Shown here piece by piece: positions 11,484 through 21,587 of a DNA stretch of 51,400 nucleotides. The stretch's first letter is position 1, and each line of letters opens with the position of its first letter. The stretch is taken from assembly GCA_022842995.1 (NCBI GenBank), contig JALHOM010000008.1:1-51400 (forward strand). The letters are read 5' to 3'. Both the position numbers and the translations under genes were made by a program. The notes below the pieces were generated by a model. It had not been told where the DNA came from, did not search any database, and saw only the letters and a program-made list of their open reading frames with translations. This DNA is from Candidatus Saccharimonadota bacterium (GTDB lineage: Bacteria; Patescibacteriota; Saccharimonadia; Saccharimonadales; 2-12-FULL-41-12).

Positions 11484-11726
11484 TAGAGTGCACATGCCTG
11501 CATCGATAATCCCCTGCCCAGCGGGCAACCCGCTAGCCCGGAATTATCTTTCAGCGATCTGCTGCGTTACTTTATCCAATGCTCCCTTCATCGTACCACA
11601 GTACGACTCAGGTCCGCTTGAATAAAGTGCCTCGCATCTCATCTGAATGCAGACATGTGCAGGCTCTACTGGGAAAGGTAAATACCCTCCACCTCCTCCC
11701 GACTGTAGCCGACTCAGGGTTTACCT
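11484..11726 (-). ncRNA. Unidentified structured RNA candidate
   Basis: Helices of 15, 11 and 9 bp plus hairpins; six A-C mismatches on + become G-U pairs on -. Confidence 0.65.
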
Positions 11727-19859: not shown

Positions 19860-20029
19860 TACATAGCCCTGCCTTTATTCGGGATAAGATGCATTGACGT
19901 AACAGATAACATCGTTCGGTATAGCCCACTTTTTACCATAATCGTGATAGTTAGAAGTATAGCCCACAAACACCGTAAATGCCACCAATAACGGAGACTC
20001 ATATTTGACAATCATGGTATAATATTACA

Positions 20030-20383
20030 TTGATGAGTGAAGATCTGGATCTCGAGAGGTGTTTGGTTTATGCAGGCGAAGCATACTCTACTTTTTTGCA
20101 ACTGCGGGATAACGGCGAAGAGCAAAGCCCGAGATGTCAGGCATTGGGTATGTATTTCACTGCTCTGATGAAGCGCGTCTCGTTTTTGAAAGATGATGCA
20201 GCCTTAGCTGGTTTAGGTGAGAAGCTTCGTGTACTTGATTCAGTAATTAAAGAAGGTCAAGACGAAGGCCGTCAATTGGAGGCTCTTCATTCCTGGAGAA
20301 GTCAGATATTCGTAGACGCGAAAGCAAGAATGAGTCTCGAGTTAGGAGCGCGTAGTACTAGCGCCAATTCCATGTTGCGATAA
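20030..20383 (+). CDS. Hypothetical protein
   Basis: 117-aa ORF preceded by TGGTATAAT. Confidence 0.55.
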   Translation: MMSEDLDLERCLVYAGEAYSTFLQLRDNGEEQSPRCQALGMYFTALMKRVSFLKDDAALAGLGEKLRVLDSVIKEGQDEGRQLEALHSWRSQIFVDAKARMSLELGARSTSANSMLR

Positions 20384-21053
20384 TTTTGTCATAGCCAGCG
20401 ACTGATTCTGGGCGTGCTTTGTCGTACAGCCCGGCAAGAACAAAGCCTCGAACTTCTTGGCCAAGATTTTTGTACTGCAAGCCGGTCGTGGCCACGATTA
20501 CAACGACATGGTCTTTGGTGTATTCGCCTGAAGTGGCGTTATAGGTGATTTTTGTAGCATCGACACCGTCTAGCTTGAGGGGGGTCTCGGCGGTAATATT
20601 GATATCTTTGCGAGAATTAATCCATTGCTGTCGTATTTCAGGGAGGTTAGCACCCTTCCCTATGGGGATAATAGAGAATGTGCTGCTCATTTTCTCGCCG
20701 TAGGTTTGGCCCAAAGCGTCACAGTGTCCGTCGGTCGGGATTGGGTCGTGCGGTGATGGCATCTCGAACTCATAGCAGGCAGTTACAAAGCGATGCGCCG
20801 GGTCAATTGTCGGGGTTGAAGCGTCAGATGGCGTGCTTGAATTGCTGGTGGCGGCCGTGGGCTTGCTGTCGTTTTTCTTCAGGGTTCCAAGCGAGAATAC
20901 CGCCAGCAAAATCAAAACCAAAATAAGCGTACTAGATATGAAACGCTGGTTGTTATTAAACGACGTCTTTAGCGTTGACTTACGACGCTGTGTTGAAGAT
21001 TTAACGGTAGTGTCATCTGTTGATAGAGTTTTTTGTTTTTCATTTTTTGGCAT
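20358..21053 (-). CDS. Single-TM membrane-anchored protein (possible PsbP-like fold)
   Basis: Basic N-tail, one TM, S/T linker, globular C-domain. Confidence 0.7.
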   Translation of the reverse strand: MPKNEKQKTLSTDDTTVKSSTQRRKSTLKTSFNNNQRFISSTLILVLILLAVFSLGTLKKNDSKPTAATSNSSTPSDASTPTIDPAHRFVTACYEFEMPSPHDPIPTDGHCDALGQTYGEKMSSTFSIIPIGKGANLPEIRQQWINSRKDINITAETPLKLDGVDATKITYNATSGEYTKDHVVVIVATTGLQYKNLGQEVRGFVLAGLYDKARPESVAGYDKIIATWNWR

Positions 21054-21161
21054 GTATTTATTTTTAATTGTTGCTAATGTTTATAACTATACCACTCTTC
21101 TGCTCAAAACTGTTCTAAAAAGTCGATTATATGTTAAAATAACCACAACTTATAAAAAAGA

Positions 21162-21290
21162 GGCCCCTTCGTCTAACGTGAGATCCGCCAGTTGGCGGAT
21201 TGCAAGGCCGGAAGCCCGGATCCAAAGGACCGAGCTGAGGCGGGGTCGACCGCAATTTCAAGGAAATTGACGGGTGACTAGGACACCAGG
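21162..21290 (+). pseudogene. tRNA-Glu-like 5' fragment interrupted by a 100-nt insert in the D-loop
   Basis: GGCCCCTTCGTCTAACG (21162-21178) and TAGGACACCAGG (21279-21290) match the adjacent tRNA-Glu; no T-arm or 3' acceptor follows. Confidence 0.6.
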
Positions 21291-21355
21291 CTGTCCTAAC
21301 ACCCCTCAGCAGATCGTACATTTCCAAATTCAAGGTATAATATACAAAATTACGT

Positions 21356-21430
21356 GGCCGCATCGTCTAACGGTTAGGACACCAGGTTCTCATCCTGGCA
21401 ATCGGAGTTCGATTCTCCGTGCGGTCACCA
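21356..21430 (+). tRNA. tRNA-Glu (CTC)
   Basis: Full cloverleaf: CCAGG-TTCTCAT-CCTGG anticodon arm, GTTCGATTC T-loop, encoded CCA. Confidence 0.97.
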
Positions 21431-21465
21431 AAACAAGAGCCCCACTGTTGTGGGGTTTTTGTTTT
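21430..21465 (+). terminator. Intrinsic terminator after tRNA-Glu
   Basis: AAGAGCCCCAC/GTGGGGTTTTT stem followed by a T-tract. Confidence 0.75.
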
Positions 21466-21571
21466 GGTCGATTTTCACAGAAAATCGAGAACTCCGCAGG
21501 AGTTCGTTCATAAGGAGCTCTCGCAGATGCTTGCATCGAGAAAGCGACGCAATGGTTGCTTTAGCAACGGA

Positions 21572-21587
21572 TCCGTGCGGTCACCAA
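21572..21587 (+). repeat. 16-bp duplicate of the tRNA-Glu 3' end (att-like)
   Basis: TCCGTGCGGTCACCAA is identical to 21416-21431. Confidence 0.9.

Follow-up and report, generated by a model that had tools for sequence, protein, structure and literature searches.

The stretch analysed here, called the window below, comprises 51,400 nucleotides (nt) of contig C8 of a Candidatus Saccharimonadota genome, which spans 1.11 Mb in 30 contigs. At positions 21162-21300 it carries the 5' part of a spare tRNA-Glu gene whose D-loop is interrupted by a structured module of exactly 100 nt. An intact tRNA-Glu(CTC) gene lies 78 nt downstream, and 177 nt separate the two 5' repeats. All parts of this tRNA locus are on the plus strand. 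The spare fragment GGCCCCTTCGTCTAACG (21162-21178) corresponds to nt 1-17 of the tRNA, which comprise the 5' strand of the acceptor stem, the 5' strand of the D-stem and the first D-loop bases; junction analysis placed its end at tRNA position 17. Compared with nt 1-17 of tRNA-Glu(CTC), mismatches were found only at acceptor positions 5 and 7, and the acceptor strand reads GGCCCCU in the spare fragment and GGCCGCA in the working gene.

The module (21179-21278, type A) was identified by a covariance-model match, its fold and covariation, and its boundaries are uncertain by about 1 nt. It replaces the tRNA nucleotides GT and is composed of the hairpins P1 (21179-21204), P2 (21207-21241), which contains a conserved GGA/GA internal loop, and P3 (21245-21278), with conserved joints (G)UGAGA, UGCAAGG and GGCGGGGUCG. 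The tRNA then resumes with TAGGACACCAGG (21279-21290), which covers the end of the D-loop, the D-stem 3' strand and the anticodon-stem 5' strand and is identical to the working gene. The next nucleotides, CTGTCCTAAC (21291-21300), are the reverse complement of tRNA nucleotides GTTAGGACA. Within them an antisense copy, TGTCCTAAC (21292-21300), pairs with the continuation and includes the complement of the two nucleotides lost to the module. Continuation and antisense copy together form a fold-back hairpin (21279-21298). When the sequence was read beyond the fragment end at 21300, neither a T-arm nor a 3' acceptor strand was found. An earlier sequence-only reading of this stretch had described the tRNA-Glu 5' piece, the gap of exactly 100 nt and the continuation, and these were confirmed to the base. 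The hairpins it had listed (ATCCGCC/GGCGGAT, AATTTC/GAAATT and, for the fold-back, TAGGACA/TGTCCTA) are all present between 21162 and 21300, and the 3' half is missing, as it had stated.

The promoters of the locus were assigned by eye. Upstream of the spare fragment, a candidate promoter at 21132-21156 consists of TGTTAAAAT (21132-21140, extended -10 type) and TATAAA (21151-21156); it was not called by a simple consensus scan, and its motifs suggest that it may serve the spare fragment. The working tRNA-Glu(CTC) gene (21356-21430; ARAGORN; 59.3 bits with the Rfam tRNA model) is preceded by a putative promoter whose -10 box, TATAAT (21336-21341), is a perfect match and lies 15 nt before the gene. 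The sequence AAGGTATAATAT around this box is also present at the related locus on contig C4. A terminator-like hairpin with a T-run follows the gene (21437-21465).

Beyond this terminator lies a mirror-image downstream unit (21469-21586, beginning at about 21466), which has paralogues at C4:57860-58102 and dispersed matches in relatives. It consists of an antisense T-arm hairpin (GAACTCC GCA GGAGTTC), a T-arm GGAGTTCG (21499-21506), a structured type C insert of about 64 nt (about 21507-21570) placed in the T-loop at position 57/58, and a tRNA 3' end that has been displaced, ATCCGTGCGGTCACCA (21571-21586). Together with type D, type C makes up a second insert family, which is also represented at C4:57860-58150 and in other genera. 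A single disrupted gene that gave rise to both the upstream and the downstream fragment was considered and rejected. Since the break points (17/20 versus 57/58) and the modules (A versus C) differ, the two fragments were taken to be separate events.

A structure-conserved module of three hairpins

The module was shown to be a structure-conserved element of three hairpins. The 151-nt stretch that was folded reaches -64.4 kcal/mol (z = -3.53), and none of 200 shuffled sequences folded as well. In the seed alignment RNAalifold recovered the three hairpins with compensatory changes in 19 of 30 pairs. When the alignment was extended to 29 distinct copies, which were fitted to the model and so lean towards its structure, 95.1% of the cells were able to pair and 25 of the 30 pairs were found to change on both sides. 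None of 500 shuffles reached any of the covariation measures of this alignment, and sliding the partners by 1-3 columns lowered pairing to 34-51%. A G-U pair of P3 is retained by 24 of the 29 copies, and 11 have G-U at another pair. Because the sense strand folds better than the antisense strand in 16 of 19 copies, the predicted folds indicate that the folded form is the tRNA-sense strand, which could be RNA or single-stranded DNA.

Modules of this family are 85-120 nt long and have three hairpins. At least 28 copies were found in the genome with nhmmer, and all but one, which sits at a contig end, lie no more than 405 nt upstream or downstream of a tRNA gene. Type A has the order GUGAGA-P1-UGCAAGG-P2(CCGGAAGCCCGG...CCGAGCUGAGGC)-GGGGUCG-P3-GUGAC, and type B shares P1 and the joints but has a different P2. 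A covariance model was built from 11 type A copies of relatives; against this model, 21178-21278 scores 103.5 bits (E = 1.5e-24). Since the type A model also matches type B copies over its own full length, the two types were considered to form one superfamily. Within the genome, a paralogous unit lies upstream of tRNA-Glu(TTC) on C4, with 83% identity over 272 nt (E = 5.9e-73).

Relatives carry modules beside tRNA-Glu, tRNA-Gln, tRNA-Arg and tRNA-Pro. When one genome per species was scanned with a pattern, more than 119 stretches matched, and nearly all of them bear the label Saccharibacteria or Saccharimonadales; the family occurs throughout Saccharibacteria. The 80 Saccharibacteria loci examined hold 95 modules, of which 71 share the strand of a tRNA that is at most 500 nt away, and these tRNAs represent 27 anticodon types. 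The suggestion of the sequence-only reading that the insert is a tRNA-targeting mini-element was thus borne out insofar as it belongs to a large family lodged in the loops of partial tRNAs. The family can be recognized by a G, two replaced nucleotides, the sequence (U)GAGA ... GUGAC, and a fold-back that faces the gene.

No described family was matched. In Rfam 15 no family reached its gathering score for the insert, and the only matches in the window are two tRNAs; a permissive scan around the module (E up to 10) gave chance-level matches below 20 bits. Hammerhead and hairpin ribozymes were rejected by eye, as there is no CUGAUGA/GAAA core and no loop A. With its 3x2 internal loop (GGA/GA), the module was also judged not to form a standard kink-turn. 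The looser of two pattern scans gave 60 hits in viral contigs, which were attributed to chance because none of them match the covariance model, and BLAST found no module in phage and plasmid records. No description of the module was found in the literature searched on Saccharibacteria and tRNA genes, and it seems to be undescribed so far.

Units, junctions and turnover

Around tRNA genes the modules are part of larger units. An upstream unit begins with a promoter and the tRNA 5' part up to the insertion site. The module comes next, then 7-25 nt in which the tRNA continues, an antisense stretch and a -10 box, and finally the intact gene. In a downstream unit the intact gene and its terminator are followed by an antisense T-arm and a short stretch in sense orientation; then come the module, the 3' part of the tRNA and another terminator. 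The tRNA-Glu locus of the window has both. An antisense match of at least 8 exact nt on the gene-facing side was found in 27 of 53 upstream units and in none of 53 shuffled controls; for downstream units it was found in 33 of 63, with 1 in the shuffled controls. The fold-back hairpin of 21279-21298 is also present in the C4 copy and in those of genomes G001, G003 and G011. Moreover, a TTCGAACC-like motif lies upstream of promoters only at those tRNAs which have an upstream unit.

The units can be stacked. Exact tandem stacks were found at tRNA-Gln on C7, where the older acceptor allele is on the outer 3' ends, and at tRNA-Arg on C4. In the unit at tRNA-Glu(TTC) on C4, module and hairpin are bracketed by a perfect direct repeat of 70 nt which consists of the promoter and nt 1-17. 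Most spare 5' parts differ from the neighbouring gene at only 0-4 of about 50 nt. At loci L147 and L111 the spare copies are distinct alleles with compensatory changes in the anticodon stem, and at L147 the short piece after the module is of the same allele as the spare 5' part. Spare copies with no module at all were seen at L038-L040. As a separate observation, L154:5300-7900 contains two nearly identical units (tRNA 3' end, terminator, module, 3' end) which are separated by 1.5 kb and have two prepilin-like genes between them, with another gene adjoining; this may be cargo between units.

Comparison of the fragments with neighbouring intact tRNAs gave 52 clean pairs of left and right junctions. 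A G is the last base retained in every one of the 52, preceded by another G in 34. Exactly two tRNA nucleotides are missing in 42 of the 52: TT in 18, GT in 16, CG in 4 and others in 4. Sites were found in the D-loop, the region of the D-stem and position 26, the anticodon loop, the variable region and the T-loop. The D-loop site at 21162-21290 reads ...AACG|GT|TAGG..., and the T-loop site is G53|T54 T55|C56 or one base earlier. Fragments may hold two or three modules (L030, L023), and nested modules are inserted at the GG|GU|C joint of the host module itself.

One insertion lies in a protein gene. In another genus a type A module was found within the last ~30 codons of topA (L033, G057:C3, minus strand, locus 469-573). 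Read-through gives a new basic tail of 20 residues, and the original tail lies in frame downstream once the module is discounted. Comparison with orthologues showed that the frame fits a small replacement at AAG|..|AGGG; the footprint is 0, 1 or 2 nt depending on where the module is taken to start, and is two if the start is the leading G.

Several other sites depart from the usual setting. At L029 (G003:C10, locus 512-613) a module lies in a duplicated 5' fragment of a structured RNA gene upstream of dprA, with the junction …CCAGAGG|module|TGGGCAC; the stretch at ~11484-11726 of the window can be compared with it. No transfer-messenger RNA (tmRNA) was found in the genome by ARAGORN or in the window by Rfam. 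The sole inverted insertion seen lies downstream of tRNA-Phe(GAA) and is shared by three genomes (C18:14430-14620; L112; L140); it keeps the usual ends and the 2-nt replacement. In addition, spare 5' copies which lack a D-loop module often have a D-loop rewritten exactly at the D-loop site of the module (L035, L036, L038, L039, L105 and C4:28470-29030), for example TCTAACGG to TCAGAGCGG or TACAGGCGG, and AAGTGGTAAGG to AAGCTTTAAGG. Such rewriting might be the footprint of an excision, reflect another allele or be an inactivating change.

The upstream unit of the window was found to vary between relatives. In genomes G004 and G005, from the same genus, the syntenic histidine-kinase gene is followed by tRNA-Glu(CTC) with no upstream unit. 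Because the G004 gene has the acceptor GGCCGCA, as does the working gene of the window, the latter was regarded as the lineage's own allele and the unit as a later gain. The module itself was judged to be a mosaic, since its parts match different copies: P1 is shared only with the C4 copy of the same genome, the tip of P2 matches the copy of G001, and P3 matches both. Exchange among copies would be expected to produce such a mosaic. The hairpin AGGACACCAGGCTGTCCT does not vary at the orthologous tRNA-Glu(TTC) site, and the module beside it is of type A in G000 and G001 and of type B in G003.

Readings of the interrupted tRNA front

With a probability of about 0.6, we interpret 21162-21300 as the redundant, truncated front of a tRNA-Glu gene whose D-loop holds a non-autonomous mobile module defined by its structure. 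The module would move, or be copied by gene conversion, as a folded single strand; this could be sense-strand DNA exposed during heavy transcription of the tRNA, or RNA. It would be mobilized by an unlinked enzyme of the host or of a helper, and would persist only where a redundant tRNA-like hairpin can absorb the insertion. The unit of spare front, module, fold-back and -10 box may have arisen by local duplication of the gene end or may have arrived with the module, and the working tRNA would be transcribed from the promoter just downstream of the fold-back. The claim of the sequence-only reading that an insertion had destroyed a second tRNA-Glu does not fit what was found. Both isoacceptors are intact, the interrupted piece is redundant and has no anticodon, and G004 and G005 have the CTC gene without the upstream unit. 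Nor is the fragment the remnant of a lost tRNA-Glu(TTC), as had been implied: an intact TTC gene lies at C4:57689-57763 among the 39 tRNAs which ARAGORN found in the genome.

The search for a mobilizing enzyme gave several rejected candidates. GC skew is uniform on every contig examined. Modules are oriented with the skew strand on 6 contigs and against it on 4, and on 1 both orientations occur. The replication-strand rule of IS200/IS605 elements was therefore rejected, as orientation follows the tRNA strand instead, and this favours recognition of the gene strand, either as the transcript or as the displaced non-template strand. An IS200/IS605-type element is also at odds with the junctions, in which only a single G is constant rather than a fixed word and two nucleotides are replaced in 42 of 52. 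The genome has one Y1 (IS200/RAYT-like) transposase gene, of 216 amino acids (C3:14098-14845; PF01797, 32.5 bits with a cut-off of 23). It is bracketed by two perfect palindromes with the core GTACAAGGAC(A/T)GTCCTTGTAC, of which the genome has 5 copies, and RAYT was rejected as the mobilizer because this palindrome is unrelated to the module.

A scar left by an integrase at its attachment (att) site was considered as well. A partial tRNA direct repeat does lie beside an intact gene, 17 nt long here and 70 nt at C4. However, the repeat is a tRNA 5' part interrupted by the module, not an uninterrupted 3' block, and the 177 nt between the repeats contain no recombinase gene. Among 148 open reading frames (ORFs) within 2.5 kb of modules at the 80 loci, the Pfam families which recur are all housekeeping ones, and no integron integrase was found among the ORFs scanned. 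The only recombinase of this set is a large serine recombinase (L105:1060-2700; Resolvase domain, E = 3e-10), which converges on the 3' end of a tRNA-Gln(TTG) gene with two upstream spare copies.

Four points weigh against a freely moving module. No transposase, integrase or reverse transcriptase was found linked to the copies, with no transposase, recombinase or reverse transcriptase family recurring among the 148 ORFs, and the covariation of the 29 copies was measured on an alignment that favours the modelled structure. In nearly every copy the tRNA fragment stops 7-25 nt past the module, in an antisense fold-back; this fixed truncation and fold-back are unexplained by free-standing insertion and would fit a cassette that moves as a whole. 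Finally, the upstream tRNA-Glu unit is common to several genera, which could reflect selection for a host function rather than selfish spread.

A bolder form of the mobile-module reading, which we regard as tentative and rather unlikely, is that the module belongs to a new class of mobile element, defined by its structure and peculiar to Saccharibacteria. It would act as a folded single strand and insert after a G in exposed tRNA-like loops, with replacement of two nucleotides, and its chemistry would have no match among known transposases, integrases or introns. The element itself might be catalytic, or it might borrow enzymes of RNA or DNA repair. Insertion would be coupled to a replacement gene end, which would let the essential tRNA survive.

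Alternatively, the whole protein-less cassette of about 150-200 base pairs (bp) could be the mobile entity, with module, short tRNA piece, antisense hairpin, promoter or terminator, and replacement gene end. It would integrate by recombination inside the tRNA gene, either site-specifically or by Campbell-type homologous recombination of a small circle, so that the old gene end is pushed outward and an intact gene is regenerated; the module would then be a cis-acting site by the crossover. This would account for the composition of the units, in which upstream ones keep promoter and 5' part, downstream ones keep 3' part and terminator, and fold-backs always face the working gene. The exact tandem stacks at tRNA-Gln on C7 and tRNA-Arg on C4, the older acceptor allele on the outer 3' ends of the former, the 70-nt direct repeat flanking the C4 unit and the distinct alleles of L147 and L111 all point the same way. 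There is also a precedent in the partial tRNAs that accrete through tRNA-targeting integrative elements such as tycheposons (10.1101/2020.12.28.424599). On the other hand, the modules in topA and those nested in other modules stand alone, with no duplicate of a gene end, and the spare copies of L038-L040 have no module. The shared allele of the post-module piece and the spare 5' part at L147 would not be expected either if the cassette brought that piece in; this allele pattern and the solitary and nested modules tell against the simplest version of the reading. The local repeat of 17 nt with 2 mismatches is too short for present-day homologous recombination, and no recombinase recurs in the neighbourhood. 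On balance a mobile cassette, although the main rival, is improbable as the explanation of this locus.

Less probable still is a structured leader RNA of the tRNA operon, selected by the host for processing, stability, a decoy function or regulation, in which the likeness to an insertion would be historical. The strong conservation of structure, including the G-U pair and the joints, would be expected of such an RNA, and so would the retention of the upstream tRNA-Glu unit across genera with very small genomes. There are -10-like boxes upstream of the fragment, and in several species the fold-back abuts the -10 box of the working gene. A leader does not, however, explain modules that lie downstream of terminators, in varied loops and tRNAs, in tandem, nested, in a protein gene and, at tRNA-Phe, inverted. 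Many tRNA genes of this genome have no module, as is the case for the CTC gene of G004 and G005.

That the insert is a tRNA intron, or the fragment one half of a split tRNA whose parts are joined as RNAs, is close to refuted and was given a very small probability. The arrangement has features in its favour: contiguous tRNA sequence bounds the insert, the position in a loop resembles that of non-canonical archaeal introns, and a 3' fragment with an insert of its own lies downstream, with its displaced end at 21571-21586. Yet an intact gene lies alongside, the fragment has no T-arm or 3' acceptor, and the downstream 3' fragment pairs with the acceptor of the working gene and not with GGCCCCU. 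The sequence-only reading had proposed half of a split or non-canonically processed tRNA, and the genome was found to contain no orphan AGGGGYC(ACCA) 3' half behind a T-arm; indeed, no sequence in it is able to pair with GGCCCCU as a 3' acceptor strand in that position. When modules were removed in silico from 154 sites, over a grid of end positions, ARAGORN predicted junction-spanning tRNAs at only 10. Three of these were inspected and are truncated copies with the intact gene directly downstream. No stand-alone interrupted tRNA gene was found among the 154 sites.

Specific kinds of intron fared no better. A group I intron was rejected because the insert lies in the D-loop after nt 17 and not in the anticodon loop, the gene copy ends at the anticodon-stem 5' strand, and 100 nt falls short of a P3-P9 core of 200 nt or more; no group I model of Rfam matched in a search of 611 nt with E up to 10. 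An archaeal-type intron or split tRNA was rejected since GGCCCCU has no 3' partner and virtual splicing of the 154 module sites gives no stand-alone gene. By eye the two insert junctions showed no complementarity, and no formal bulge-helix-bulge search was made.

An ordinary decaying pseudogene with hairpins formed by chance is refuted: the missing 3' half and the two acceptor changes would suit it, and the intact TTC gene elsewhere is one of two signs that the sequence-only reading had named for it, but the other, a lack of homologous inserts, does not hold, since inserts are abundant (family-model E = 1.5e-24, about 30 paralogues, more than 119 matching stretches, with compensatory changes), and a simple pseudogene was rejected on this ground.

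Comparison with known systems and neighbouring features

Integron attC sites and the attP(+) hairpin of CTX phage, which is used by XerCD, are folded single-strand substrates of recombination. Like the module they are structure-defined, strand-specific sites, new arrivals stack beside a functional site that is regenerated, and a stem of sense and antisense strands can mimic a double-stranded target. Unlike them, the module has a tRNA loop as its target, and the analogy is one of logic only. No link of the module to a Xer-type recombinase, a dif site or an attI site was found, and no test aimed at one was made. A second parallel is rtT RNA of the tyrT operon in E. coli (Rfam RF00391), in which tandem units of ~180 bp downstream of the tRNA each end in a copy of the tRNA 3' end. 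These resemble the present units in being tandem, linked to a tRNA and furnished with 3'-end copies, but the module has no Rfam match. The rtT repeats are not known to have a multi-hairpin module shared among many tRNA species or a counterpart on the 5' side.

Small structured insertions are known from other genomes. Rickettsia palindromic elements are structured, about 100 nt long, have no gene of their own and are found inside genes, including those for RNA. The repetitive hairpin elements of sponge mitochondria (PMC2800124) and the GC clusters of yeast mitochondria (PMC4478555) are similar to the module in being structured, gene-less and located inside genes, RNA genes among them. There is no sequence relation to any of these, and the module differs in being nearly confined to redundant tRNA fragments and in its fixed G|NN replacement. 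The module also shares with the REP/REPIN-RAYT system (PMC3116915, PMC3479197) and with IS200/IS605-derived hairpins that it is short, protein-less, recognized by shape and vertically persistent; both are probably handled as single strands, and a Y1 transposase gene is present in the genome. In contrast to REP sequences, the module is not a palindrome of 20-40 nt but a set of three hairpins with conserved joints, which is inserted into tRNA-like loops in place of 2 nt and is oriented by the gene strand rather than the replication strand. In this genome, moreover, the Y1 gene has its own unrelated palindrome, with only 5 copies.

Integrative elements that target tRNA genes leave arrays of partial tRNAs; examples are phage or island att sites, integrase-less cis-mobilizable remnants and the tycheposons of Prochlorococcus (10.1101/2020.12.28.424599). 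The likeness lies in the partial copies beside an intact gene, in stacking with older ends outward and in the regeneration of a working gene. The differences are that here 5' and 3' ends are duplicated equally often, that the units are only ~150-200 bp and have no integrase and no cargo, that a folded module interrupts the tRNA block in a loop and is accompanied by an antisense fold-back, and that one module family uses many tRNAs and loop positions.

The genomes of Saccharibacteria are among the smallest and most streamlined of bacteria, and in this one about 30 sites, beside most tRNA genes, are given over to a single repeat family. If the module is selfish, this would be a new way of living in an essential gene family, by hitting a loop and leaving or creating a working copy; if it has a role for the host, it would add a new motif, at the RNA or DNA level, to those of tRNA operons. 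Either reading would explain a recurring trouble in annotation, namely the tRNA fragments, the 'split' tRNAs and the breaks in contigs and gaps in scaffolds that occur at tRNA loci.

Two further observations concern the surroundings. Between the histidine-kinase gene and tRNA-Glu the window has two ORFs at 20030-21053, one of 117 amino acids on the plus strand and a membrane-anchored one of 231 amino acids on the minus strand, which are absent from the syntenic interval in G004 and G005. They were considered as the cargo of an older unit, and this was rejected, as no tRNA fragment or module was found at 19860-20400. The tRNA set of the genome lacks Arg(ACG), Ser(GCT) and a third gene with a CAU anticodon. 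Since module-rich tRNA loci coincide with a scaffold gap (an N-run at ~C4:28917-28926) and with one contig end (C29), the missing tRNA genes may have been lost in assembly breaks.

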